Below are positions 14,407 through 27,100 of a stretch of DNA of 64,000 bases, piece by piece; position 1 is the first letter of the stretch, and each line of letters opens with the position of its first letter. The position numbers were made by a program, and so were the translations under genes. Under the pieces are notes generated by a model. It was not told where the DNA came from and did no database searches. It saw nothing but the letters and a program-made list of their open reading frames with translations. The DNA comes from Phycisphaeraceae bacterium (lineage in GTDB: Bacteria > Planctomycetota > Phycisphaerae > Phycisphaerales > Phycisphaeraceae): positions 608,001 through 672,000 of the forward strand of contig OY771506.1 in NCBI GenBank assembly GCA_963674705.1. The letters run 5' to 3'.

Positions 14407-14488
14407 TGAGGTGGGACGGAGTTGAACCGCCAGGGTCTTTCGACGGCTGGGTTACAGCCAGCGGGGCCTGCCAATGCCCAACCACCTC
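14407..14488 (-). tRNA. trnY: tRNA-Tyr(GTA)
   Basis: Cloverleaf; anticodon arm GCTGG-CTGTAAC-CCAGC; long variable arm; no CCA. Confidence 0.9.
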
Positions 14489-14616
14489 GGATGAGCCGTT
14501 AGCCGTTAGGCTTTGGCCATGAGCACGGAGTTGTTCCGCCTTTGGCGGATGGGGGCAGCAAGCTGCCCCGCTTAACGGCAAGCCTTTTTGCGCTAACAGA
14601 TGGTGGCTTCATAAAG

Positions 14617-14701
14617 CGGAAGGCGGTGGGCACGATCCACAAACTCAAACGAGTCCCGACCGGTTAGCAACCGGTGCCCGTCCCCGACGGGTTCACCTTC
14701 C
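14617..14701 (-). tRNA. trnS: tRNA-Ser(GCT), atypical T-loop
   Basis: ACCGG-TTGCTAA-CCGGT; long variable arm; T-loop reads ATCGTGC rather than TTCRANY. Confidence 0.8.
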
Positions 14702-14805
14702 TGGTGTATGTAGGCTTGAGGCGTGAGTCTTGAGGCTTGATTAAGCATGCAAAACGTAAGCATTGCGATACTCAAGCCTCATCCCTCAAGTCTCAAGCCT
14801 TCCAA

Positions 14806-14876
14806 AGGCCGGGGCGGGAATCGAACCCGCTTGGACGGGGTTGCAGCCCGTCGCCTTGCCATTCGGCCACCCGGTC
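14806..14876 (-). tRNA. trnC: tRNA-Cys(GCA)
   Basis: ACGGG-CTGCAAC-CCCGT; U73; A2-C71 mismatch. Confidence 0.88.
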
Positions 14877-14931
14877 TTGTGAAGAGTGGATGGATGTGAA
14901 TTGAAGCAATAAAAACCGTTAAAATCCACAT

Positions 14932-15822
14932 ATGGACTTTCTATTCTGCTGTTATCCAAATCGCATTCGTGAAGTTGATCCGGATTATCAGGCCGAGGCT
15001 GATTGCGTAAGACAACTCAGTTCATCTGTGAGTTTGTTGGATCATGACGCTCTGCTTGAGGGAAGTGTCTCCAAATCAATCCGAGGCGTTGAATCCCGTA
15101 CAGATCAGAAACAGCTGTGCTATCGGGGGTGGATGATCCCACCGCCGTTGTATAAACAGCTATACGAGGGTCTACTTGAAAAGAACCTAGTGCTAATCAA
15201 TTCACCCCAGCAGTATCAACATTGCCATTACCTGCCGGATTCATATGAATCTATCAAAGGCAAGACGCCTGAGACTGTGTGGATCCCGGGACGACCTCCG
15301 TTTGATCCAGCACAGATCATGGCGGCAATCAAACTGTTTGGTGGCAAACCGTTGGTCCTGAAAGATTATGTGAAGTCGCAGAAGCACTATTGGAAGGAAG
15401 CCTGCTACATACCTGACTCAAACAAGCAAGATGAAGTCATGTCCCGGGTTAACAGGTTCATCGAGCTACAGTGTGATGACATCGAGGGTGGATTGGTGTT
15501 TCGCGCGTATGTGCCGATCAAGATCATTGGGCGACATGCGGTTAGTGGTATGCCGTTAAGTCATGAATATCGTGTTGTGTGGTTTGAACAGAATCCGGTT
15601 GTGGTTTGGCCTTATTGGGATGCTGCTGATCCGAGGGAATGTGATCCGCCTTTGGATGCATTTCGCGAAGTCGCGAACCAGATCAACAGTCGGTTTTTCA
15701 CGATGGATATTGCTGAGCTTGACGACAGCAGTTGGATCATTGTTGAGCTAGGCGATGCGCAGGTCGCAGGATTACCGGAGAATGCTGATCCGGTGACTCT
15801 GTATAAACCGTTAATTGATTGA
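14932..15822 (+). CDS. ATP-grasp domain protein (R2K-clade-like)
   Basis: YRGWM, CHYLPDSY, VLKDYVKSQKH, GGLVFR, EYRV and FFTMDIA..W.IVELGDAQVAG. Confidence 0.8.
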   Translation: MDFLFCCYPNRIREVDPDYQAEADCVRQLSSSVSLLDHDALLEGSVSKSIRGVESRTDQKQLCYRGWMIPPPLYKQLYEGLLEKNLVLINSPQQYQHCHYLPDSYESIKGKTPETVWIPGRPPFDPAQIMAAIKLFGGKPLVLKDYVKSQKHYWKEACYIPDSNKQDEVMSRVNRFIELQCDDIEGGLVFRAYVPIKIIGRHAVSGMPLSHEYRVVWFEQNPVVVWPYWDAADPRECDPPLDAFREVANQINSRFFTMDIAELDDSSWIIVELGDAQVAGLPENADPVTLYKPLID

Positions 15823-15850
15823 CTTGGCATATCAGAATGCAATTCAAAAA

Positions 15851-15922
15851 TGCGGCCGACAGGGATCGAACCTGCTCCTCCGCCGTGGCGGGGCGGCGCT
15901 CGGCCAATTGAGCTTCGACCGC
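15851..15922 (-). tRNA. trnG: tRNA-Gly(GCC), atypical (A8, C33, A73)
   Basis: CCGCC-CCGCCAC-GGCGG; standard D and T arms. Confidence 0.85.
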
Positions 15923-15956
15923 GTGGTGGGTAGTTCGTTGTGATATCGATTAGAAG

Positions 15957-16029
15957 CACGCACGGTAGGGGTTGAACCCACATCTGGTGGATTTGGAATC
16001 CACTGCTCTGCCGATTGAGCTACGTGCGT
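15957..16029 (-). tRNA. trnW: tRNA-Trp(CCA)
   Basis: GTGGA-TTCCAAA-TCCAC; G73. Confidence 0.92.
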
Positions 16030-16179
16030 GTGGGGAGAGCTGTTAGCTGTTAGCTGTTAGCCGTCAGTAAGAAGTATTCCGCCTGCGGCGGATGGGGGTA
16101 GCAAGCTGCCCCGCTAAACGGGGAGAACGCGAAACGCGAAACGGCTTGAGCTAATGGCTAAGGGCTAACGGCTCATAAA

Positions 16180-16251
16180 CTGCACCGGCAGGAATCGAAC
16201 CCGCAACCGTCTGCTTAACAGGCAGCCGCACTACCTTTGTGCTACGGTGCA
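16180..16251 (-). tRNA. trnN: tRNA-Asn(GTT)
   Basis: CTGC-CTGTTAA-GCAG; U1-A72; G73. Confidence 0.9.
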
Positions 16252-16302
16252 ATGTGTGTGATTGACTAAAGCCTCACCGCTCAAGTCTCAAGACTTTTCA
16301 AA

Positions 16303-16375
16303 TCACCCCGGCTGGGGTCGAACCAGCACGCTGCCGTTTAGAAGACGGCCGCTCTTCCGTTTGAGCTACGGGGCG
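16303..16375 (-). tRNA. trnR: tRNA-Arg(TCT)
   Basis: GCCGT-CTTCTAA-ACGGC; GGAA D-loop (A20). Confidence 0.9.
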
Positions 16376-16432
16376 ATGCTCGACTTATTCGATCGTTATT
16401 GACAGCGTGATGCGATACCTGACAATGCGGGT

Positions 16433-17470
16433 ATGTATGAAAATCAAACCAACAGTGACGGTGATAAAGGACCGGGGGCTGAGGCTGTCGCTCGTGTGGT
16501 TGACGCGGCGAATCAGCATCCCGATGAAGGGCCAACGGAAGAACTGATCACTGCGATCAATGAATTGGTTGCACAGGACAAGCATCTTGATGCGAACACG
16601 TATCGAGCCTTGTCGGAGAGCATCAAGCAGATACGGTCGCCGATGAGTGCGGGATTCGTCGCTGTCTGGTTAGGTGCGACGGTTGAAAATGGTGCGGACC
16701 CGCATGTGCCGTTGCCGCATGTTCTTGAATACCTGTACAACCTGATCGCCACGATCCAAACGCCGAAGGACGATGAGCCGGATGATGCGGTCCCCGAACC
16801 GGGCGAACTTGTGCAGCAAGCATTGGATCACCTGGGGCAGGCGCTGGTCGCGATGTTGATACGTTGTCCCGATGCGATCAGGGAACTCATCCGGCGCGAG
16901 CAGGCTGTATCCGAGCTTGAGCGCGTGGAGCATCTGGCGAGTGGACCCAAGTGGATATTAGCGTTACTTAGACAACGCAGCGGTGAGTTGCTTGTATTGC
17001 ACGGCGTTGAAGGGGTCGGCGTTCGTGTGAAGTATGAGAATATCGAAAACTGTTTTCACCTGTTCACGCTCCTTCAGGGTTTACTCCAGCGTGTGATGCC
17101 CGGCGCGAAGACGCAAAGCACGACGATGTACAAGATCGCGCGGGGTGAACTGGTCGGGCAGGTGCATGACTCGGCGTGGTGGCATTACGGCCGGGCCGGG
17201 GTGCCGAAGGCGGACTTTGTCGGGATGGTCTTTGGCGAGCCGACGCTAGATTCGATCGATGAGGTTGACGGACAACAGGTGTTGCTGCTCTGGCCGCCGA
17301 TCATCGCGGATCGTTCGTGGAACTCTGGCTTTTTCCAGCCGATCATCGATGCCAGGAAGCCGAACGTTGAGTTGCTGGAGAAGCTGTCGCCTGACGAGGT
17401 TAAACGCTGGCGCGAACGGTTGGGTTTGCCTGCGGCAAAGGCGCGGCCGTGGTGGCGTTTCTGGTCTTGA
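16433..17470 (+). CDS. Hypothetical protein ending in a RPWWRFWS motif
   Basis: 345-aa ORF filling the space between two tRNAs on the opposite strand. Confidence 0.75.
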   Translation: MYENQTNSDGDKGPGAEAVARVVDAANQHPDEGPTEELITAINELVAQDKHLDANTYRALSESIKQIRSPMSAGFVAVWLGATVENGADPHVPLPHVLEYLYNLIATIQTPKDDEPDDAVPEPGELVQQALDHLGQALVAMLIRCPDAIRELIRREQAVSELERVEHLASGPKWILALLRQRSGELLVLHGVEGVGVRVKYENIENCFHLFTLLQGLLQRVMPGAKTQSTTMYKIARGELVGQVHDSAWWHYGRAGVPKADFVGMVFGEPTLDSIDEVDGQQVLLLWPPIIADRSWNSGFFQPIIDARKPNVELLEKLSPDEVKRWRERLGLPAAKARPWWRFWS

Positions 17471-17483
17471 CCGTGAGTATGAA

Positions 17484-17555
17484 AGCCGGCGGCCGGGATC
17501 GAACCGGCGCCTCCGTGGTACGAGCACGGTGTTCTGCCTGTTGAACCACACCGGC
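17484..17555 (-). tRNA. trnT: tRNA-Thr(CGT)
   Basis: CCGTG-CTCGTAC-CACGG; G1-C72, C2-G71. Confidence 0.9.
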
Positions 17556-17632
17556 GATAAAACCCTCGGCCCGAAGACCGAGGGCTGCAGAGAAAAAACG
17601 CGAAACATTCGCATGCAGACACCATTAAGAAG

Positions 17633-17705
17633 TGGCCCCGGTGGGACTCGAACCCACACCCAGCGGATTAAAAGTCCGCTGCTCTGCCGATCGAGCTACA
17701 GGGCC
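17633..17705 (-). tRNA. trnK: tRNA-Lys(TTT)
   Basis: GCGGA-CTTTTAA-TCCGC; A73. Confidence 0.92.
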
Positions 17706-17869
17706 TTGTCGTGTTGTTTTAAAATGGGAGAGCGAGCAGGCTGGCAGCCTGCGGCTAATGGGTGAGTGCGTTGGGATGAAGTTGTTGAAAACAAGATAGC
17801 CAGTTGATCTACGATGTTTCGCGGCGGGCTTTGTTACCCTACACCCCACACCCTAAACCCTATCCACAA

Positions 17870-17943
17870 TGCGCCGTGTCGGCCTCGAACCGACCACCTG
17901 CTGGTTGGAAGCCAGCCGCTCTGCCGAGATGAGCTAACGACGC
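17870..17943 (-). tRNA. trnG: tRNA-Gly(TCC), A73
   Basis: GCTGG-CTTCCAA-CCAGC; GCG acceptor start. Confidence 0.9.
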
Positions 17944-18024
17944 CAGGTATGTTTCATTTCTGCATGCTCTGTGTGGCGCAGTCGCAATACGGCCACGGCC
18001 GATCATCTATAATGGGCGGCACCG

Positions 18025-19896
18025 ATGGGACAGCTTGCCGAGAATACGGTGTTGCGATCACAACGTGTTTACAAAACCCGTTGGATCTCGGGTTTTGTCC
18101 TGATCTCTGGTGTCACGATGGCTGGCGCCTGTCTGTTCATCATTCTCGCGACATTGCTTGCGGGCAAATCCAGCCCGATCATGCAAGTGATTGTCACAGT
18201 CTGGCTGGGGATCACGGCAGCTTTCTTTCTCTGGTATCCACTTCACATGTTCAGCCGATCGCTGACGCGATATATCTTCACACCTGAAGCGTTAATTGAA
18301 CGTTCGCTGTTCCGCAAGCAGGTCATGCCCTGGCGTGACGTGACGGATTATTCCGTGGTGGCTGGTGACGCGGGGGAGCCGTTGTCACACATCATCTTTC
18401 ATCTGGTCGACGGCCAGACCAAACAACTGCCGTTGGACCTGATCCCCGAAGGCCGGGTGGAGACGTTACTTTCGGCATATGTGCCGTTGATCGCGGAGCA
18501 TGGGTTGGAGCGACCGAGGCAAGCCGGATCGTCAAAAAGCGAACTGCGTAAAAGCACACGGAAGGAAGCCATCTCCGATTGGGCTACTCTTTGTTTCAAC
18601 ATTTTGTTTGGTGGGATTTGTATCACAGTATCTGTCTTTCTCATGCTTGGTCGCATGGAGTATCAACTAATCATCAGCGATCCGGTGGAAGTGACCGCGA
18701 CGGTTATTGAACTGGATGTTGATGAAGAGGATGCATCGTTAACATTTGAATTCACTGACGATCAAGGCCATGTTGTCCGATCTAGCCGGTCGGTCGAGGT
18801 GAGCACAGCTAAAACATTGGCTGTAGGCAGCGAAGTAACCGTCAAGCACCTGCGTGGTTCACCTACAAAAGTCCGATTGAAGAAGGGCGATCTGGATCAC
18901 CAAGAGTGGCTGTACGTATTCGTCAGCTTCCCGCTGGGGTGGTTGTGTATTTGGGGGTGTTTCCGGCTGCTCAGGTCGATTTTTGGGCCTAAGACAAAAT
19001 CGGCGTCATGGTCGGTCCAGTCTAATTATGACGAGGCGATTATCTCGTACAGCCCGGCATATATGGAAACCAGTGTTGCTATGATCCCCGAGCAACATGT
19101 CGGTGCGGCGGTTTTTCTTCGTCTGAACAGCAAGGAAAACAGCAATCAATTCGTGGATCAGATGTCCACTTTTTCACCAAGCTCGCATGAATTGAACGGG
19201 AACAATATCCAGTGTGAAAACATTGCCGGGATTTTCCTGTGTATGGGGCCCGTGGCGATGTCTCGTTTTGTATCCCGCTTGGGCGAGCCGGCCAAGACCC
19301 GTGCTGAATATGTCGTGCTCGACATGGCGGACAGTGTGGAAGTAAGCCGGTGGGCGGTACGGAATGATCCGAGGCATCGCGACATGGATGAATTATTCAG
19401 CGATGAAGTCGTTCGGTTCTGTTGCCGAAATAACACGGTTGGGCCGGTGCAGCCGGGTGAACTGACATACGTGTTTGATCGATTCATCATGCAAATGATC
19501 AAAGCCCTGTGTGAAGATCAGACGCCCGCGGGGCTATACGACGTCAGTATCTGTCAAATCCTGAATCTCTCACCCAAAGACCTTGATGCCAGGATCATGC
19601 TGTCGCTGCAGATGAACCGGTTGCGGATTTTTGTGCAGCTGCGCGGCGTCAATCAAGCTTCGGTGGCTGAGTATCAATTTGGACAGTGGCGGCGCACCCC
19701 GGAAATGCCCGTGCCATTAAGCATGCGCAACTTCAAGTGGTTGAAGTATGTGTTAGCGCTGCCGTATGGTCCGTGGCTGATATTGCCGGTGTTACCGTAT
19801 CTCATCTACTGGGCGATGGAATTGCCATGCAAATGGTATCGGCACTTTCAATTGAATAAAGCGCGGGCCGCGTTGTTGCAATCTTCCTCGATCTGA
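18025..19896 (+). CDS. Multi-pass membrane protein (bacterial PH-like plus DUF3592-like segments)
   Basis: 623-aa ORF with several hydrophobic helices; VTATVIEL...FEFTDDQG...VGSEVTVKHL resembles DUF3592. Confidence 0.7.
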   Translation: MGQLAENTVLRSQRVYKTRWISGFVLISGVTMAGACLFIILATLLAGKSSPIMQVIVTVWLGITAAFFLWYPLHMFSRSLTRYIFTPEALIERSLFRKQVMPWRDVTDYSVVAGDAGEPLSHIIFHLVDGQTKQLPLDLIPEGRVETLLSAYVPLIAEHGLERPRQAGSSKSELRKSTRKEAISDWATLCFNILFGGICITVSVFLMLGRMEYQLIISDPVEVTATVIELDVDEEDASLTFEFTDDQGHVVRSSRSVEVSTAKTLAVGSEVTVKHLRGSPTKVRLKKGDLDHQEWLYVFVSFPLGWLCIWGCFRLLRSIFGPKTKSASWSVQSNYDEAIISYSPAYMETSVAMIPEQHVGAAVFLRLNSKENSNQFVDQMSTFSPSSHELNGNNIQCENIAGIFLCMGPVAMSRFVSRLGEPAKTRAEYVVLDMADSVEVSRWAVRNDPRHRDMDELFSDEVVRFCCRNNTVGPVQPGELTYVFDRFIMQMIKALCEDQTPAGLYDVSICQILNLSPKDLDARIMLSLQMNRLRIFVQLRGVNQASVAEYQFGQWRRTPEMPVPLSMRNFKWLKYVLALPYGPWLILPVLPYLIYWAMELPCKWYRHFQLNKARAALLQSSSI

Positions 19897-19915
19897 GCCC
19901 GACTCACAAAATCAA

Positions 19916-19990
19916 TCAGCCCGGCTGGATTCGAACCAGCGATCTCTCCCGCCCGAAGGGAGCGTGATGACCAAGCTTCACCACAGGCTG
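19916..19990 (-). tRNA. trnP: tRNA-Pro(CGG)
   Basis: CTCCC-TTCGGGC-GGGAG; C1-G72, A73. Confidence 0.9.
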
Positions 19991-20120
19991 TTAAGCACAA
20001 TGCATAGTTGATTGAGTGTTCAATCAAATATAGTTCACACGAGATTGCTGGCCCTCACCCCGGCCCTCTCCCAAGGGGAGAGGGAGTAAAACACTAAGCC
20101 GCAAGCGGCTTTTGGGTGAA

Positions 20121-20192
20121 TCAGGGGAGAGGGAGTCGAACCCGCTTCCTCGGGGTCACGGCCCGAAGCTTTACCGCATAAGCTATCCCCTG
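20121..20192 (-). tRNA. trnH: tRNA-His(GTG), atypical (no G-1:C73; C1-G72, A73, C33)
   Basis: TCGGG-CCGTGAC-CCCGA; acceptor CAGGGGA/TCCCCTG-A. Confidence 0.8.
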
Positions 20193-20233
20193 AATGACGG
20201 GCCCCCGATCCCGCCTCATTGAATCATGTGTGA

Positions 20234-20482
20234 TTATTGTCTGAAGTAATGGCTGCGGTTTGAGCCGTCGAGTTTGCCGGTCTTCATGCAGCACTTCTTA
20301 AAAGCGTTTGCCGCTGCCGCAAGGACATGGATCGTTGCGGCCGAGCTTTTCGATCAGTTCTTTGTTGCCATGAACGCATTGGTCGCCCCGCTTGACTTGT
20401 GACTCGGACGGGTAGCCGTAGCGTCGCTTGCTCATGGGCTGGAAAGGATTGGTCGTCGTTAAAAGCGATGGTCCTTGTGCAT
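20234..20482 (-). CDS. SEC-C motif zinc-binding protein, split across frames (candidate +1 programmed frameshifts)
   Basis: AAAGGAGGT SD plus ATG 20482; [15 protein letters not shown] stops at TAA 20298 and the motif-completing KKCC lies in the +1 frame. Confidence 0.75.
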
Positions 20483-20548
20483 GGTGCACCTCCTTTGATA
20501 ATAGATTGTTACCACTCACACTCCCCCTCTCTTGCGTCAGAAGTTATA

Positions 20549-21529
20549 ATGCAGGAGATGAAATTACGGCCTAAAGCATTAGAAAACTTGGCGGTAATGA
20601 TTTGCGGAAATAAAGATGATCCGTATGGAATACCATTTTCATATCGCTCTAGTTCATACTTAACAGGTTTCTTTTCTGAGTGTGACTTAACATTTGTACA
20701 TGATGGCTCAACACGTAAAAGGTGGGTACTAGATGTTCTAAATTCACTAAACCAAAATGTCGCAAGTATGCCCGATCTCCCCTCAGATGACCTGGTTCGG
20801 GTAATCACCGAATTAATGGATCCAGACCATTTTGACGCGGAAGATACCGATCGAGGACAGGCCTTGAACAAGTTAAACCAAACTCTCAGCCGAGATTCCT
20901 TGATCGCATATATTGAAAATAATGGGCAGTGTTATTTACGACATACAGGCGCTGGTACAACATCTGCAATGTTGCCTCAACGACCCCGCCCACTATCTCC
21001 AGAAGAAAAACAACAGCGAGACACACTGTCCAAATTTCTCGATAACGCGAGCGAAGACGAGTTTACAGAAACAGTACTAGTCCCATTATTTCAGCGCCTT
21101 GGATATCACAGAGTCATAGCATCGGGGCACAAAGAAAAAGTATTAGAATTCGGGAAAGACTTATGGATGAAGTTTCAATTACCAACTGCCCATTGGATAT
21201 ACTTTGCCATACAGGTAAAAAGAGTGAAAATTGATGCCAAAGGTAAAAGCAGTGGTAATGTTACAGAAGTACTCAATCAGGTGAGAATGGCTCTGGACCA
21301 CGAGATATTTGATCCCGATGTAAATCGAACAGTACTACCAGATCATATCTACGTTATTTCGGCTGCAGAGATAACCCGAGCAGCACAAGCTTGGATCATT
21401 CGACATCTAGATAGAGAACAACGACGTCAAATCATCTTCATGGATCGCACGGAATTATTGAATTTCGCAGCTCGAATAGTTACAGAACTACCAACGCCGA
21501 ATTCTATCGATGACGAAATACCTTTCTAA
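20549..21529 (+). CDS. Putative PD-(D/E)xK restriction-endonuclease-like (Mrr-like) protein with AbiJ-like N-terminus
   Basis: EDEFTE..LVPLFQRLGY, EFGKDL and AIQVK catalytic-type motif; visibly more AT-rich than its flanks. Confidence 0.7.
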   Translation: MQEMKLRPKALENLAVMICGNKDDPYGIPFSYRSSSYLTGFFSECDLTFVHDGSTRKRWVLDVLNSLNQNVASMPDLPSDDLVRVITELMDPDHFDAEDTDRGQALNKLNQTLSRDSLIAYIENNGQCYLRHTGAGTTSAMLPQRPRPLSPEEKQQRDTLSKFLDNASEDEFTETVLVPLFQRLGYHRVIASGHKEKVLEFGKDLWMKFQLPTAHWIYFAIQVKRVKIDAKGKSSGNVTEVLNQVRMALDHEIFDPDVNRTVLPDHIYVISAAEITRAAQAWIIRHLDREQRRQIIFMDRTELLNFAARIVTELPTPNSIDDEIPF

Positions 21530-21532
21530 AAA

Positions 21533-21605
21533 TCAGAGCGGCAGGACTCGAACCTGCGGCCGCCTGGTCCCAAACCAGGCGCTCTGCCAACTGAGCTACG
21601 CTCTG
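21533..21605 (-). tRNA. trnP: tRNA-Pro(TGG)
   Basis: CCTGG-TTTGGGA-CCAGG; C1-G72, A73. Confidence 0.92.
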
Positions 21606-21664
21606 TGATAAAGCCCGGCCGGGCGCGCTTGTGAGAAGCGGCCCGATGGCCGGGGATATAGGGG

Positions 21665-22279
21665 TTAATCGTGCAACTCGGTGTTCCAGTACGCGGTGTC
21701 CACGAAGTGTTTCCACGTGTCGTGGCGGAACCGATGCGAACGGAACATGAGTGCCGTCGGGTCCGGACGCTTCGGCTGACGGATCAACTTCAGGCCGGCC
21801 TCTTCGGGCGTGCGGTTGCCTTTGATCGCGTTAACTTCGACGCAGCAGCAAACCAGGTTTTCCCAATTCGTCTTGCCGCCACGCGAGGTGGGGATGACGT
21901 GGTCGAGGTTCAGCTTGCTGGCAGGGAGTTTGCGGCCGGTGTACTGGCAGGTGTAGTTATCCCGCAGGTACACGTTCTTTCGGCTCAAGCGCACGGCCTG
22001 GCGTTGCATACGCCGATCGAACCGCAGCATGCGGACGACGCTTGGGACGATGATGGCCGAGGTTACCGTTCGCACGAAGCTGTGGGCCTCGGGCTCGAAC
22101 TCATGTGCGAATTCACTGAGCTCGTGCCAGGATGCGAAGTCGTAAGCGCGATAGTTTTCGTCAACGGCTTCGACTCGGCCGACAAACAGATCGGCCAGCG
22201 CTTCAGCAGCGGTGATGATCCGCAGCGCGGCGTAGTTACGGTTCAGAACGAGCACATCATGCGACAGAGCCGACGTCAT
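21665..22279 (-). CDS. HNH endonuclease
   Basis: VLVLN, LSRKNVYLRDNYTCQY, LNLDHVIPTSRGG..WENLV..C..VNAIKG; AAAGGAGGT SD 5 nt before ATG 22279. Confidence 0.9.
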   Translation of the reverse strand: MTSALSHDVLVLNRNYAALRIITAAEALADLFVGRVEAVDENYRAYDFASWHELSEFAHEFEPEAHSFVRTVTSAIIVPSVVRMLRFDRRMQRQAVRLSRKNVYLRDNYTCQYTGRKLPASKLNLDHVIPTSRGGKTNWENLVCCCVEVNAIKGNRTPEEAGLKLIRQPKRPDPTALMFRSHRFRHDTWKHFVDTAYWNTELHD

Positions 22280-22381
22280 GGCCGACCTCCTTTCAGGATT
22301 GAAGTTGATTGACTGGTTTTGTCCCCTCTCCCCAGGCAACGAATTCGATCTGCGTTGCAACTTCTTACAGAAGAAAACTAT

Positions 22382-22548
22382 TAGCCACCGATGAACACGG
22401 ATGAACACAGATCAGAATAAATCCTGTTTCGTGTTTCGAACACATTGACTCAAGATGCCTGTTCTGACTACTTGAACTGCGATGAATCTGATGCACTTAA
22501 GCTTCTCTTGCTTTGCATCTGTGTTCATCCGTGTTTATCTGTGGCTAA
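22382..22548. repeat. Inverted-repeat element family B (GCCAC-GATGAACACGGATGAACACAGAT ... ATCTGTGTTCATC-GTGGC)
   Basis: Paired arms also at 25641-25733, 27282-27375 and 29209-29320; single arm at 6756-6787; related variant at 24143-24260. Confidence 0.85.
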
Positions 22549-22613
22549 AATTGGCTGGCTGAAGACTCCGAACGAATATGTTGCGAGGGAAGAGGGAGCA
22601 GGAGTAAAGCAAG

Positions 22614-22685
22614 TGGAGCTGCGGGGAATCGAACCCCGATCTCCCGGGTGCAAGCCGGGTGCTCTCCCGATTGAGCTACGGCCCC
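22614..22685 (-). tRNA. trnA: tRNA-Ala(TGC)
   Basis: CCCGG-CTTGCAC-CCGGG; G3-U70 present. Confidence 0.92.
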
Positions 22686-22696
22686 ATGAAAAGGAA

Positions 22697-22761
22697 TGTC
22701 GCGGAGAGGATTCGAACCTCCATCAACTGGGAAGTGCCTCTGCCGATTGGGCTACGACGAC
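22697..22761 (-). ncRNA. tRNA-like RNA or pseudo-tRNA lacking a normal anticodon arm (Leu-type D-arm)
   Basis: 65 nt: acceptor GTCGTCG/CCGCGAC-A, D-arm GCCCAATCGGCAGAGGC, perfect TTCGAAT T-loop, but only ACT-TCCC-AGT in place of the anticodon arm. Confidence 0.7.
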
Positions 22762-23993
22762 AAAATTAAAAAAAGTAAGTGGCCCGGGTGGGAGTCGAAC
22801 CCACAACGCACCGGATCTGAGCCGGCGTCCTCTGCCGGTTGGGATACCGAGCCGGAGATAGAGCAGGAGTAAAACAGAGCAGGAGAACAGGAGATAGGAG
22901 AGCAGGAGAAAAAGATAAGTGCTCTCGGCTGGGGTCGAACCAGCACGCCGTTGCCGGCAGCGGGGTTTAAATCCGCCGCGTCTGCCTGTTCCGCCACGAG
23001 AGCGTTTGTTTGTTTAACACGAATGCCGCCGGCAGGATTCGAACCTGCACGTTGCCGGGTTTGAGCCGGCTTCCTCTGCCGATTGGGATACGGCGGCCAG
23101 GTTGGTGCGTCGGGCGGGATGATGAGTTTGCTGCGATACGGGCGGACGGTTTGTCGCGGGGTGTGAAGTTGCCGAAAGCGTTTCGCTAGCAGCGTACAGA
23201 ATCGACAGTATTCAAGATCCACATCTTTTAGCTTAACTTGAATACAGCGTGAACCATCCAAGTATCTCTTAGCTTGCTTTTCGGCAATCTCTGTATACGA
23301 GCGTGCGTAATACGGGCCACCATAGATCCGCCACAACTCACTAATGCTGATAGGTGCTCTGCCCAGCACGGCGTCTATAAAGTCGAAACCCCAAGGGGGA
23401 TACCCCAAGATTCGCCGGGCGGTGATGGGCGCCAGGTCAATCATGAACCAACGATGACGCCGGTGATGCAATTGGAAACCGGCGCAGACATCAAAAAACA
23501 CACAAGGTGGGTCAAACTTTCTGCATGACCTAAACGACGGCGACATCATCAGTAGACCGGTGTCCGGATGCACATAGAACCGGTCGCGCCAATGGCGGCC
23601 CCAGATTGGTTGCCAACCGAAGGGGTAGCCGACCGAACAGGGTTGGCCGTCAATGATCCGGACATGTCGGACAACAAGCCAGAGCACGTGGTCGCGCACG
23701 TGGTTTTGAACGGTACTGTCAACCCGGACGTGTTGGCTGATCTCCGACCAGACATCGTTCCACGGCTTGCCGACCGAGCTCTGCAGGAAACGGATCAGTG
23801 GGGCCAGGTTTTCGCTTTGCCACTTCATATTTTTCCATGTCTGCCAGGCTCGTTTCATACCTTCTATATGGGGTAGGCCGGTGTCGTCATCGGCGTCGCG
23901 TGGTAATCGGTAGCGCTTGGCGCCACGGGGGAACTTATTACGGCAGCCTCCCCGCGGTCGCTCGACGATCAGCTTGGCCATGTCGCTTCGCAC
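22752..23993 (-). CDS. Arg-rich hypothetical protein (MRSDMAKLIVERPRGG...); frame runs on through three tRNA-Leu genes
   Basis: AAAGGAGGT SD 5 nt before GTG 23993; protein-like for about 250 aa (ENLAPLIRFLQSSVGKPWNDVWSEI, FYVHPDTGLL); first stop at 22752. Confidence 0.7.
   Translation of the reverse strand: MRSDMAKLIVERPRGGCRNKFPRGAKRYRLPRDADDDTGLPHIEGMKRAWQTWKNMKWQSENLAPLIRFLQSSVGKPWNDVWSEISQHVRVDSTVQNHVRDHVLWLVVRHVRIIDGQPCSVGYPFGWQPIWGRHWRDRFYVHPDTGLLMMSPSFRSCRKFDPPCVFFDVCAGFQLHHRRHRWFMIDLAPITARRILGYPPWGFDFIDAVLGRAPISISELWRIYGGPYYARSYTEIAEKQAKRYLDGSRCIQVKLKDVDLEYCRFCTLLAKRFRQLHTPRQTVRPYRSKLIIPPDAPTWPPYPNRQRKPAQTRQRAGSNPAGGIRVKQTNALVAEQADAADLNPAAGNGVLVRPQPRALIFFSCSPISCSPALFYSCSISGSVSQPAEDAGSDPVRCGFDSHPGHLLFLILSS
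22780..22853 (-). tRNA. trnL: tRNA-Leu(CAG), short variable loop, A37
   Basis: GCCGG-CTCAGAT-CCGGT; variable region only GCGTT. Confidence 0.85.
22920..23003 (-). tRNA. trnL: tRNA-Leu(TAA)
   Basis: GCGGA-TTTAAAC-CCCGC; long variable arm GCCG-GCAA-CGGC. Confidence 0.9.
23024..23097 (-). tRNA. trnL: tRNA-Leu(CAA), short variable loop
   Basis: GCCGG-CTCAAAC-CCGGC; variable region only AACGT. Confidence 0.87.
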
Positions 23994-24048
23994 GGCACAC
24001 CTCCTTTCTGCTGTTGCGGTTGTTGCGGTTGCTACGAAGACAGGACAA

Positions 24049-24121
24049 TCACCCCGGCAAGAATCGAACTTGCAGCCTTCGGCTTCGGAGGCCGATGCTC
24101 TTCCGGTTGAGCTACGAGGTG
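24049..24121 (-). tRNA. trnR: tRNA-Arg(CCG), A37
   Basis: TCGGC-CTCCGAA-GCCGA; AACCGGAA D-loop. Confidence 0.9.
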
Positions 24122-24292
24122 TTAGTGAAAACAAAAGCGGTTTGCCACGAAAAGGCACAGAAGACACAAAAGGGCTGGCTTAAGAAGCACAGAACATTGC
24201 GTAACAAACCAATTGAATACTCATGTATTTCTATTTTGTGGTTTTTGTGCCTTTTGTGGCTACTTCTTAGTCTTACATGAATGTGAGATTAA

Positions 24293-24365
24293 ACAGGCCG
24301 GCGGGATTTGAACCCGCAACCTGCCGGTTCAAAGCCGGCCGCTCTTCCGGTTGAGCTACAGCCCG
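24293..24365 (-). tRNA. tRNA with Gln anticodon (TTG) on an Arg-like body
   Basis: GCCGG-CTTTGAA-CCGGC; D-arm identical to the Arg(CCG) copy; C1-G72, U73. Confidence 0.75.
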
Positions 24366-24366
24366 A

Positions 24367-24438
24367 TCGACCCGGCGTGACTCGAACCCACGCACAGGCC
24401 CTTATAAGGGACCCGCTCTGCCACTGAGCTACGGGTCG
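24367..24438 (-). tRNA. trnI: tRNA-Ile(TAT)
   Basis: GGTCC-CTTATAA-GGGCC; A73; G52-A62 mismatch in T-stem. Confidence 0.82.
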
Positions 24439-24594
24439 GGGGATTCGATCTGAAGTACCAATTCAATTGGATTACCCGCTCGATCATGTTGCATACGAAT
24501 ACACAATGAATTCGGCCCTCACCCCGGCCCTCTCCCGAGGGGAGAGGGGGAAAGTACAAGCCTCAAGACTCACGCCTCAAACCTTTTCAAAAAG

Positions 24595-24667
24595 CCACCC
24601 CGGCAGGATTCGAACCTGCACCTTCCGGATTCGTAGTCCGGCGCCCATCCGCTTGAGCTTCGGGGTG
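24595..24667 (-). tRNA. trnR: tRNA-Arg(ACG), A8
   Basis: CCGGA-CTACGAA-TCCGG; A20. Confidence 0.9.
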
Positions 24668-24682
24668 AAGTACCCGACGGCG

Positions 24683-25396
24683 TTATGCAAACCGACGGGC
24701 GATGTATGTATTGATCGTGTCAACAACACGACGCTGCGATGCGAGCACATGGTCTGCGTGAAGTCGAAAATCACGAGGAATGTGGCCATGCTCATCGTAG
24801 GCCACCTCTCGCCAAAGGATCACCAGGCCGACGCCCGCGAATGTGTATTGATGGCGGTTTTCCGAAAAATGACAACGACGGACTAACTCTGCGCCGTACG
24901 ATACACGTGCCAGATCCCGGCCGAAGTTACCCGTCCAGGTCACGATCTGTTCGAGGTCGGCTTCAACAAGAGGCCAGCCGTTCGATGCAACAAGATCACG
25001 TAACGTCATCAGCTTCAGGACCCTCGCCATATCGCGATCACGTTTGCGTGGGTATACCTTATCGCCCAGCCGCCAGATCAGTCGATTGCAGAACCGGCAA
25101 CTGCAATGAATATCAACCGGTGTTTGCCGCAATGGGTGATCTGCGGAGGTATGTCCGAACGATACTAACATGCTTGTGTAAGCAACCATGTCAGCATCAT
25201 GAAGAAGTAGTTCTTCCGGGATAACGCCGCGGTTATTCACAAGCCAATCCGCAGCAGCTTCGCACTCAGGTATATGTTTGTGGTCGTGGTCGAACCGCAG
25301 GCCGGTTTTGAAACGGGCATCACGGAGCCAATCGATGAATGCGTAGACAATCTGTTGTACACGTATCGCCTGATCAACTGTTTGTTTTGTGAGTAC
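24683..25396 (-). CDS. Hypothetical protein with CxCxxC motif; start position occupied by GTA
   Basis: Open frame fills the Thr(TGT)-Arg(ACG) spacer; SD-like AAAGGCAGGT lies 5 nt before in-frame GTA 25396; alternative TTG 25417 has no room for an SD. Confidence 0.6.
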   Translation of the reverse strand, partial: VLTKQTVDQAIRVQQIVYAFIDWLRDARFKTGLRFDHDHKHIPECEAAADWLVNNRGVIPEELLLHDADMVAYTSMLVSFGHTSADHPLRQTPVDIHCSCRFCNRLIWRLGDKVYPRKRDRDMARVLKLMTLRDLVASNGWPLVEADLEQIVTWTGNFGRDLARVSYGAELVRRCHFSENRHQYTFAGVGLVILWREVAYDEHGHIPRDFRLHADHVLASQRRVVDTINTYIARRFA

Positions 25397-25419
25397 GATG
25401 CACCTGCCTTTGAGCAAAG

Positions 25420-25492
25420 AGCCACGAGTCGGGATTGAACCGACGACCTGCGGTTTACAAGACCGCTGCTCTGCCAGTTGAGCTACCGTGGC
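25420..25492 (-). tRNA. trnT: tRNA-Thr(TGT)
   Basis: GCGGT-CTTGTAA-ACCGC. Confidence 0.93.
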
Positions 25493-25538
25493 GGGGAACT
25501 TTCGGGGGGAAACTTCCGGGGGAAACTTCCGGGGGAAA
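25493..25538. repeat. Short tandem repeat (GGGGAAACTTCC-like, about 3.5 copies)
   Basis: Direct reading; the complementary CCCGGAAGTTTT motif recurs at about 26122, 26378 and 57163. Confidence 0.65.
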
Positions 25539-25539
25539 G

Positions 25540-25613
25540 CGACGCCGACGGGGATCGAACCCGTGACCTCTTCCGTGACAGGGAAGTGCTCTTGCCGATT
25601 GAGCTACGGCGCC
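25540..25613 (-). tRNA. trnD: tRNA-Asp(GTC)
   Basis: CTTCC-CTGTCAC-GGAAG; G73. Confidence 0.92.
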
Positions 25614-25754
25614 GTGCTTCAATCTGAATAGAAAGTATTTTTAGCCACGGATGAACACGGATGAACACAGATAAGATTTGAAAATATCTCATTCAGATCG
25701 TAATCCGTGTTTATCTGTGTTCATCGGTGGCTAATACAGGTTAATACAGCACAA

Positions 25755-25836
25755 AGCTACCGACGGGAGCCCCCGGTTTTGAACCCGTGACCGCCCGCTT
25801 ACCACGCGGGTGCTCTTCCGGCCGAGCTCCGGCAGC
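25755..25836 (-). tRNA. trnT: tRNA-Thr(GGT) with a 9-nt T-loop insertion (possible pseudo-tRNA)
   Basis: CCCGC-GTGGTAA-GCGGG; T-arm ACGGG-TTCAAAACCGGGGGCT-CCCGT; G8, G32. Confidence 0.65.
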
Positions 25837-25849
25837 ATTGTTAAAACAA

Positions 25850-25922
25850 TTGACCCGAGAGGAATTGAACCTCTTGCCCCCCGCTTATCAGGCGGGTGCT
25901 CTTGCCGGTGAGCTACGGGTCA
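25850..25922 (-). tRNA. trnI: tRNA-Ile(GAT)
   Basis: CCCGC-CTGATAA-GCGGG. Confidence 0.9.
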
Positions 25923-26000
25923 AGTCTGTAATAAAGCGCATCGCCCCGCCGCCCGATTGCGACGGGGCTTGCGATTTTTTTACATCCATCCACTCTTAAC

Positions 26001-26032
26001 TTGTCAATGAACGCGTGGCTGTAAACACAGCC
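26001..26032 (-). promoter_or_regulatory. boxB-like hairpin plus boxA-like antitermination signal
   Basis: GGCTGT-GTTT-ACAGCC followed 4 nt later by GTTCATTGACAA (compare rrn boxA GCTCTTTAACAA). Confidence 0.5.
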
Positions 26033-26039
26033 GACTAAG

Positions 26040-26111
26040 CCGCTGGTCCCGGATTCGAACCGGGGGCTCCCGGGCTTCAACCGAGCGCTTTACCCGCTAA
26101 GCGAACCAGCG
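26040..26111 (-). tRNA. trnF: tRNA-Phe(GAA), atypical (G37, C38, G73, C1-G72)
   Basis: CTCGG-TTGAAGC-CCGGG; acceptor CGCTGGT/ACCAGCG-G. Confidence 0.85.
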
Positions 26112-26185
26112 CCCCCCCGATCCCCGGAAGTTTTTCCCTCGTGTTATTCACACGGAAGGAATGCTTCCGGGGATCGGGTTAAAAG

Positions 26186-26257
26186 TCGCCGCGGTCGGGA
26201 TTGAACCGACGCACTTCCCCATGTAACGGGGATGCTCTACCGCTGAGCTACGCGGCA
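26186..26257 (-). tRNA. trnV: tRNA-Val(TAC), G32
   Basis: TCCCC-GTTACAT-GGGGA. Confidence 0.88.
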
Positions 26258-26439
26258 TCGTTGGCGCACCGATCGCGTGGACGGTTTTGGCCGTCTTTGT
26301 CGCACCGATCGGTGCGCCACTTTCGGGTTGTCTCGGCCGAGAAGGGATATACCCCCGTCTCTCAGCCTCTCCCCAGCCCCCGGAAGTTTTGTCACTCGCG
26401 CTACTCACGCGTAAGTAATCTTCCAGGGACGGTTGTTAA

Positions 26440-26511
26440 TGGCGGCGACGGGACTCGAACCCGTGTCTCCGGGACATGAACCCGGCAAGGAACCAACTCC
26501 TCCACACCGCT
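26440..26511 (-). tRNA. trnfM: Initiator-type tRNA-fMet(CAT), G37
   Basis: CCGGG-TTCATGT-CCCGG (three G-C pairs), A1-C72 mismatch, A11-U24. Confidence 0.85.
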
Positions 26512-26525
26512 ATTTACTTTTTAAG

Positions 26526-26599
26526 TCGCGATGGCTGGACTTGAACCAGCAACCTTTCCCGTATGAAGGGCGTGCTCTACACTTTTGAGCTACATCGCG
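26526..26599 (-). tRNA. trnM: tRNA-Met(CAT), elongator type, degenerate
   Basis: CGCCC-TTCATAC-GGGAA with two mismatches at the top of the stem; D-loop lacks GG. Confidence 0.7.
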
Positions 26600-26647
26600 A
26601 ATTTGTTGTTTTCGATCGTCCTTTCTTTTTAACACTCAAACTTTGAA

Positions 26648-26719
26648 TGGCCGCGGCTGGGATCGAACCAGCGCCCCCCTGCTTGTCGTGCAGGTGATCT
26701 ACCGCTGATCTACGCGGCC
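26648..26719 (-). tRNA. trnV: tRNA-Val(GAC), A32/C33
   Basis: CCTGC-ACGACAA-GCAGG. Confidence 0.87.
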
Positions 26720-26732
26720 ATGGGATAACCAA

Positions 26733-26803
26733 TAGCCTTGGCGGGAATTGAACCCGCGGCTCCGCCTTGAAAGGGCGGCGTGCTTCCACTGCACCACAAG
26801 GCC
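26733..26803 (-). tRNA. trnE: tRNA-Glu(TTC), first gene of the array
   Basis: CCGCC-CTTTCAA-GGCGG; U11-A24. Confidence 0.9.
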
Positions 26804-26872
26804 AATGCATAACGACAGTTACGTCGTTTCGAACGTCGTGTGGCGTCGGGTTTTGAGTCTGGGGAAGCGGGC

Positions 26873-27100
26873 TTACGCGGCGGATCGATCGCCCGGCATA
26901 AATCGCCGTGATCGACCTTTGCCGGCGGCCTGTGTCCCTGGTAGTAGCACGCATAACGCATGCCTGTAAATACCGAGGTAACTGAAGGCCGCTTGGCATA
27001 TGTCCGCAAGAATCGCGGACACGTCCCCAATGCCGCCAGACAGCATCGACGCACAGGACGTGCGTTCGTATGTATTCAGTTTTTGCTGTCTGAGGGTCAT
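26873..27100 (-). CDS. Putative leader ORF (75 aa) in the structured 5' leader of the tRNA array
   Basis: AGGTGA SD-like sequence before ATG 27100, just downstream of the promoter; overlaps several hairpins. Confidence 0.35.
   Translation of the reverse strand: MTLRQQKLNTYERTSCASMLSGGIGDVSAILADICQAAFSYLGIYRHALCVLLPGTQAAGKGRSRRFMPGDRSAA

Follow-up and report, generated by a model that had tools for sequence, protein, structure and literature searches.

What becomes of a gene that reaches the next tRNA gene before it reaches a stop codon? The window, a stretch of 64,000 nucleotides of a Phycisphaeraceae genome (G000; contig OY771506.1, positions 608,001 to 672,000), holds such a gene. Coordinates given below are those of the window unless another locus is named.

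RESULTS

An open frame runs into tRNA-Leu(CAA)

On the minus strand, a GTG start codon (23993-23991), placed 6 nt behind a purine-rich ribosome-binding site (24000..24007), opens a frame of 298 codons; both signals were read from the sequence. Codon 298 ends at 23100 and base 1 of tRNA-Leu(CAA) (23097) is the third base of codon 299, which confirmed the claim of the earlier note that no stop precedes this tRNA. The note had further stated that the frame passes through three tRNA-Leu genes and ends in a truncated tRNA-like RNA, and this also held. Read on, the frame crosses tRNA-Leu(CAA) (23024..23097, minus strand; 74 nt, without the long variable arm, recognized by ARAGORN, Rfam and its cloverleaf fold), whose 5' end is the predicted RNase P cut, and then the ARAGORN-called tRNA-Leu(TAA) (22919..23003) and tRNA-Leu(CAG) (22779..22853) on the same strand, both of which ribosomes could traverse in this frame only on an uncut precursor. 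It is open for 413 codons in total and stops at TAG 22754-22752, that is, at bases 8-10 of a truncated tRNA-Leu(GAG) (22697..22761, minus strand; Rfam tRNA, 32.2 bits). In the window genome this tRNA gene lacks 9 bases of its anticodon arm; G004 and runs X3, X5 and X6 have it complete.

The 298 codons comprise a conserved core (residues 1-246; 23256..23993, minus strand), delimited by homologs, a structural model (mean pLDDT of 72.6) and a fold search (Z up to 5.8), and a 52-codon stop-free extension beyond the usual family end (23100..23255, minus strand). Upstream of the gene lies tRNA-Arg(CCG) (24049..24121, minus strand; ARAGORN and Rfam), and processing at its 3' side would define where an excised focal mRNA begins.

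A sequencing error or a recent indel near 23250, which the earlier note had named, along with close homologs that stop at about 250 aa, as what would undo its reading, is ruled out by G004 and by contigs of 4 runs, and the missing stop is old and shared with distant homologs (see below). The closed genome G004, from the same genus, carries the same frame with 1 synonymous difference in 894 bases, and no stop or indel was found in 23098-23993 in contigs of the 4 runs, which belong to 3 studies (X1 may be the source sample, and X5 and X6 are one sample). We have dropped G004 as evolutionary support and use it as a check on the sequence only, since the near-identity of the focal gene contrasts with the 3-7% divergence of most of its neighbors and suggests recent exchange. 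A second gene behaves in the same way: 20402-21529 and 23100-23993 are 100% and 99.9% identical to G004, with neighbors differing by 3-7%, a pattern suggesting that both were recently exchanged between the two species.

The gene is part of a long tRNA array

The focal gene lies within a long array that counts 30 tRNA genes and, in addition, the Leu(GAG) remnant, all on the minus strand (14407..26804; ARAGORN, Rfam), which by its sequence is an L-type tRNA array. The genome has 78 tRNA calls, 48 of them elsewhere, in addition to tmRNA; tRNAs for Leu CAA, CAG, TAA and GAG are also encoded outside the array. An HNH cargo gene of the same array (21665..22279, minus strand; Pfam HNH_5) served as internal control, and its stop lies 59 nt before tRNA-Pro.

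We have compared 17 related arrays, leaving out G503 and G442 (different arrays) and G004 (a near-copy). All 42 other cargo genes (HNH, RtcB, Band-7, TROVE and small genes) stop 9-731 nt before the next tRNA, and all three intact copies of the focal gene lack a stop there. The focal gene is present in four of the 17 arrays, in one of them (G007) as a broken copy, and absent from 13. HNH genes occur in 16 of the arrays, RtcB in 9, Band-7 in 7 and TROVE in 3; in G000, RtcB is encoded outside the array. Distribution is patchy at the level of the order as well, with array-type HNH genes at ≥70% identity in 16 of 401 genomes.

Several other features of these arrays were recorded. Related Phycisphaerales arrays (L165-L181) carry HNH, RtcB, Band-7, TROVE/Ro60, an RLIG1-like gene and an unknown gene of 76-88 aa, and G710 and G471 have two arrays each. 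The array tRNAs Leu(CAA), Leu(CAG) and Leu(GAG) are 74-76 nt long and devoid of the long variable arm; from one genome to another, the anticodons CAA and CAG trade places at the first and third Leu genes. Four opposite-strand genes interrupt the array of the window (14932-15822, 16433-17470, 18025-19896 and 20402-21529), the first encoding an R2K ATP-grasp protein and being replaced in G004 by a different 271-aa gene. The spacers 22420-22545 and 24135-24230 resemble short palindromic repeats, and the second matches many other contigs in runs. Two tRNA-Sec calls were present in the genome (G000:C1:708446 and 1821572).

The missing stop is shared by distant relatives

The two best-scoring non-identical loci among 80 from genome contigs, L010 (G710) and L011 (G629), encode proteins with 42% identity and belong to two further genera of the family, in related tRNA arrays. 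Neither has a stop before tRNA-Leu, and both enter the tRNA in the focal frame, base 1 of the tRNA being again the third position of a codon. The earlier note had proposed examining homologs for a downstream tRNA, and these closest intact homologs with DNA context do run stop-less into tRNA-Leu. Their extensions beyond the family end measure 44 and 59 codons, against 52 in the window, and their genes are preceded by similarly strong ribosome-binding sites. In G007, of the same genus as the window genome, the copy is frameshifted; its last 43 codons are open into tRNA-Leu in the same frame and align with the window extension (p 0.003). These observations support a missing stop that is old and shared by three distantly related lineages.

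In the remainder of the family the gene ends as expected. A visible stop is present at 98 of the 101 loci with DNA, and it falls soon after residue ~245 in 95/98 closed loci and in all 26 viral loci. Beside the window gene, the only non-stop cases are L010, L011, the G007 remnant and G004 (3/98 closed loci, 0/26 viral loci). Further non-stop members were found neither in 26 and 18 viral loci (overlapping sets) or 6 metagenome loci, nor in samples of 144 family, 401 order, 401 class and 401 phylum genomes, nor from the tails of 198 proteins, P0052 among these being judged from its protein sequence. Array-borne members outside the stop-less group end short of the following tRNA gene, at a distance of 3 nt in L016, 95 nt in L102 and 58 nt in L206. 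The L016 gene (972-1841) sits between two copies of tRNA-Arg(GCG), the second being the one it stops short of. As to the position of the stop in homologs, the notion that relatives share its absence thus stood for the closest intact ones and failed for most of the family, which stops at ~250 aa; because of the latter, the arrangement is clade-specific.

The gene precedes the first Leu gene of the array in G000, G007 and G629 and the third in G710, the arrays being otherwise collinear, and an array of the same genus as G710 has an empty site at the third-Leu position. The gene has therefore moved or been reinserted while staying stop-less. Past the first tRNA, the three lineages have tails of 28, 89 and 115 residues, and a 383-aa variant diverges just after it; the sequence beyond this point is, to judge from such comparisons, free of constraint. 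The protein tree lacks resolution: in it the three non-stop proteins belong to an open group that also includes the stop-bearing P0052 and P0067, among others, and a grouping of the three by themselves was neither shown nor rejected (p-AU 0.4). As a single origin is not rejected, the stop-less state may be one inherited event.

How often the extension would be open by chance

An open extension in the window gene by itself would not be unusual (P 0.13-0.19); the evidential weight rests on the two distant homologs. Shuffles left the extension open with P 0.19-0.32 for L010 and 0.16-0.20 for L011, so that the joint chance of both being open is about 0.03-0.06, a value that leaves out the window gene as the discovery case. 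The other two frames of the extensions contain 2-5 stops each. The three extensions are mutually unalignable (shuffle p 0.30-0.60) and the lineages differ from each other at 49-57% of the third codon positions in the core; neutral DNA should hence be largely randomized.

Within the extension itself, protein-like composition was not found (p 0.07-0.72), and K+R was raised in two of the three extensions (p 0.02-0.03). Comparison with G007 revealed no third-position excess in the extension (22/52, 27/52 and 30/51), and a synonymous bias was not borne out by these counts. Core columns (54 conserved) are kept at 0.93 in L010 and 0.91 in L011, with a median of 0.89 in 181 others; the window copy retains 0.80 and has lost the C-terminal KRQL motif.

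The protein belongs to an unannotated family

The family counts 3,978 representatives at 50% identity; a word search gave 49 hits, and 48 homologs are 164-284 aa long. Sequence searches against Pfam (0 families at E 0.1), NCBIfam, PHROGs and the PDB gave no family match, and an Atlas search returned unnamed clusters only. Members usually end a few residues past a YAxxKRQLSxxE motif near residue 245: 177/198 proteins reach the profile end, the median tail being 6 residues and 9 tails exceeding 30. Nine of the 101 loci lie in or within 4 kb of clusters of ≥5 tRNAs, eight lie near rtcB, and in five the family gene is directly upstream of rtcB. The family also occurs in phages, including phages without arrays. 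In Caulobacterales (L034, L046, L048, L052, L079 and other loci), promoter-like hexamers were seen by eye directly before the ATG, without a ribosome-binding site, which suggests leaderless mRNAs for these genes.

The whole-protein model, built with 40 sequences (pTM 0.48), predicts a basic N-terminal arm of low pLDDT, a three-helix domain with a beta wing (residues 56-160), a beta-rich domain (165-245) and a low-confidence extension. The pLDDT is mostly >80 over 61-150 and falls below 50 at 254-261 and 277-298, in keeping with the impression of the earlier note that the sequence stops looking folded after about residue 250. Foldseek gave no PDB match at E 0.001. In a wide fold search the top matches were winged-helix domains (Bax1, Z 5.8; Nse3, 5.4; CSB, 5.0; MARF1 LOTUS, 4.3), and nearly all of the top 50 span residues 55-160, with a best Z that is middling. 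The core may thus be described as winged-helix-like, although the fold call is weak.

The 298-residue protein has a pI of about 10 and 12% Arg. The suggestion that it could be a rescue factor was not borne out: it has no ArfA or RF-1 domain (Pfam), contains neither a KH motif nor GGQ, is four times the size of ArfA or BrfA, and has a predicted winged-helix-like core. By size and by the absence of domain and motifs, identity with ArfA, BrfA or ArfB is ruled out. A likeness to PSRP1 (E 0.15) was set aside. Profile hits to the HPF/PSRP1 hibernation factors had E values of 0.15-0.62, and the pY domain did not figure among the fold matches. None of the four RF-1 matches in the genome is the focal gene; the fourth, at G000:C1:1557405-1557584, is an RF-1-domain gene with GGQ and a helical C-terminal part, additional to RF1, RF2 and the ArfB-like gene. 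From predicted fold and neighbors, the likeliest role for the focal protein would be that of a nucleic-acid-binding accessory of a tRNA and RNA-repair response.

DISCUSSION

Putative control by RNase P and trans-translation

RNase P cuts bacterial pre-tRNA at base 1, so the focal mRNA would end two bases into codon 299, and in an mRNA cut at the junction conservation of the frame there would not be needed. A cloverleaf fold of the first tRNA was obtained for G000, L010 and L011 alike, and where its acceptor stem differs, the changes are matched. Genes for RNase P RNA, tmRNA, SmpB and an ArfB-like protein are all present in the genome, in which ArfA was not found. No terminator-like site is present in 22500-27000, and a promoter scan returned 1 site against 3.1 expected. 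Cleavage hairpins, the other kind of end that the earlier note had envisaged in homologs, did not emerge: the 103 nt upstream of the tRNA are no more stably folded than shuffled sequence (z 0.14, -0.26 and -1.62), and there is no family-wide hairpin before the stop (mean z -0.02; 4/82 below -2).

The reading that we consider best, and to which we give a little under an even chance, is that tRNA processing itself makes the message non-stop. The focal gene would be co-transcribed with the array, and RNase P would cut at the tRNA-Leu 5' end, leaving a non-stop mRNA. Under normal conditions tmRNA would tag the product, which would be destroyed; the protein would build up only when trans-translation is saturated, with the ArfB-like factor releasing it untagged, and would then contribute to the tRNA and RNA-repair response of the array to stress. 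On this view the extension would be a sequence-free linker, and a stop within it would be selected against because it would bypass the control. The reading is favored by the two distant stop-less homologs with their mutually unalignable open extensions, by the stops that all other cargo genes retain, by the conserved core of the non-stop copies, by the free sequence past the first tRNA and by the two different Leu positions at which the gene is stop-less. Against it stand the possibility of one inherited event, the stop-bearing tail of P0052 (see below), the lack of protein-like composition and of a third-position excess in the extension, the absence of the gene from 13 arrays and its breakage in G007, and, in the window copy, the lost KRQL motif and the lower share of conserved columns.

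The proposal draws on two known behaviors. The arfA and brfA genes are expressed from non-stop mRNA and their products degraded via trans-translation, and Arf pathways release proteins untagged, as set out in sections of PMC8012679; translational stress induces the Anabaena L-array along with rtcB and an HNH gene, and the array transcript undergoes rapid processing, according to sections of PMC8421152. Combined, non-stop control and a fast-processed, stress-induced array suggest a gate, with the product tagged normally and released whole when tmRNA is saturated.

We have also considered a stronger form of this idea, which we regard as possible and hold more tentatively. The next tRNA gene would here serve as the terminator, the mRNA would be obligately non-stop, and the stress array would meter its own winged-helix-like cargo by spare tmRNA capacity. 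Some 30-40 residues fill the ribosome exit tunnel, and extensions of 44-59 codons just exceed this, which is the basis for supposing that the protein could act while tethered: speculatively, the extension lets the folded domain clear the tunnel and work on a stalled ribosome. The phage arrays suggest that such a device may recur. In L102 (1960-2430, 2605-3132 and 3348-3863) and L107 (1785-2207 and 3355-3741), five other ORFs have their stop 10-41 nt inside the next tRNA; one is a PD-(D/E)XK endonuclease (Pfam), three are HNH-like by eye and one is unknown. Processing of the tRNAs would make these messages non-stop too.

Alternative explanations

The same phage ORFs show that the overlap recurs, and it may simply be tolerated, with no logic of non-stop control. 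Applied to the focal gene, this would mean one ancestral stop loss, after which coupled ribosomes read the uncut precursor to a later stop and add a harmless tail, later rounds of translation being tmRNA waste. We take such an accident for the main rival, somewhat less likely than the reading above, and several observations favor it: a single origin is not rejected, the gene is patchy, a pseudogene in G007 and eroded at its motif in G000, and the length of the extension is within the ordinary spacer range of cargo genes. The 64-residue tail of P0052 ends at a stop of its own and contains no tRNA-like peptide; a tail may therefore have existed before the stop was lost, and have been retained for its own sake. 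What argues against the accident is that over the long branches of the tree a neutral extension would in most cases be expected to have acquired a stop again, while the two independent intact homologs are both open (0.03-0.06), and that all 42 other cargo genes have retained theirs. Fast processing of L-array transcripts, reported in sections of PMC8421152, also speaks against it.

The missing stop could instead be a built-in degron. A winged-helix repressor acting at the array promoter would be kept short-lived through its ssrA tag, and the array would be derepressed when translation stops. The predicted winged-helix-like fold, with DNA-binding domains among its matches, and the five of 101 loci in which the family gene directly precedes rtcB would fit such a role, as would the precedent of TrcR, a repressor that controls a cyanobacterial array and rtcB, probably by way of its own degradation (sections of PMC10272220). 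We nevertheless find it improbable, given that the fold matches reach no more than a middling Z of 5.8 and count RNA-binding LOTUS and Z-beta domains among them, that 13/17 arrays do without the focal gene, that a shared operator was not evident by eye in the upstream regions, and that the family occurs in phages without arrays.

A still less probable explanation is that the frame itself matters, in that ribosomes entering tRNA-Leu would either pause on the proline-rich peptide encoded there or cover the RNase P site, and would so link ribosome traffic to the maturation of tRNA-Leu or the release of the protein. The entry frame is indeed the same in the three intact lineages and the G007 remnant, even though the first tRNA could be read through in any of the three frames, and the junction peptide P[PS]YPN[WR]Q occurs in all four. 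L010 and L011 would both enter the tRNA in the focal frame by chance in about 1/9 of cases, however; the junction peptide is dictated by the tRNA acceptor stem, and inheritance of one junction explains the frame. Least probable of all, and very much so, is a gene crippled by stop loss and on its way out: breakage in G007, absence from 13/17 arrays and loss of the KRQL motif in G000 would suit it, but L010 and L011 keep intact frames at 42% identity with nearly all conserved columns, and strong ribosome-binding sites precede all three copies.

Significance and relation to known systems

As far as the sequences go, the gene is real, stop-less and clade-conserved, and it would represent a novel variant of control only if the RNase P mechanism holds. 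The known programmed non-stop mRNAs of bacteria, arfA and brfA, come from RNase III or a terminator, and both encode rescue factors. If the proposal is true, tRNA processing would be a third route to a programmed non-stop mRNA, tying array processing to trans-translation, and a simple genome-wide search would follow, namely for ORFs that run into a tRNA 5' end. The case also points to a function for an unannotated family linked to tRNA arrays, RtcB and phages. A literature search, covering mostly titles and abstract openings and few subscription papers, found no bacterial gene made non-stop by RNase P, and sections of two papers on RtcB neighborhoods (PMC6514570 and PMC7824862) do not describe the family.

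The focal gene resembles several known systems in part. In winged-helix domains such as the N-terminal part of Bax1, Nse3/MAGE, the CSB WHD and LOTUS/OST-HTH, the predicted likeness lies in residues 56-160, with a three-helix arrangement and a beta wing (Z 4.3-5.8, rmsd 2.7-3.8); no sequence match to the focal protein accompanies it, and the scores are in the range of a common arrangement. TrcR, the RHH repressor of the trn operon, is comparable as a possible regulator linked to a tRNA array and rtcB, but its fold is RHH and not winged-helix-like, it is not array cargo, and DNA binding by the focal protein is hypothetical. The L-arrays typified by the Anabaena trn operon share the ~30 supernumerary one-strand tRNAs, the HNH cargo, the patchy distribution and, in related arrays, RtcB, Band-7 and TROVE (PMC8421152); the host here is a member of the Phycisphaeraceae, and sections of that paper describe no stop-less cargo gene.

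The closest parallels concern the mRNA end. Like ArfA of E. coli and BrfA of B. subtilis, the focal protein is predicted to be made from a stop-less mRNA in a cell with tmRNA-SmpB, and its level would report trans-translation capacity, as described for these factors in sections of PMC8012679. The arfA and brfA genes, however, do have a stop, and it is RNase III or a terminator that ends their messages upstream of it; the focal gene has none before the tRNA, and its predicted end is made by RNase P. ArfA and BrfA are RF2 recruiters of 72 codons, with a still shorter active form, in contrast to a focal protein of about 300 aa with a putative winged-helix-like core. In the tRNA punctuation of animal mitochondria, stop-less mRNAs likewise abut a tRNA and are ended by RNase P (sections of PMC9674279), but there polyadenylation completes the stop at the protein end, whereas here 44-59 extra codons come ahead of the cut and no completion is apparent. 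The focal gene is thus like arfA and brfA in the logic of its regulation and like mitochondrial tRNA punctuation in its anatomy, and it is a member of neither.
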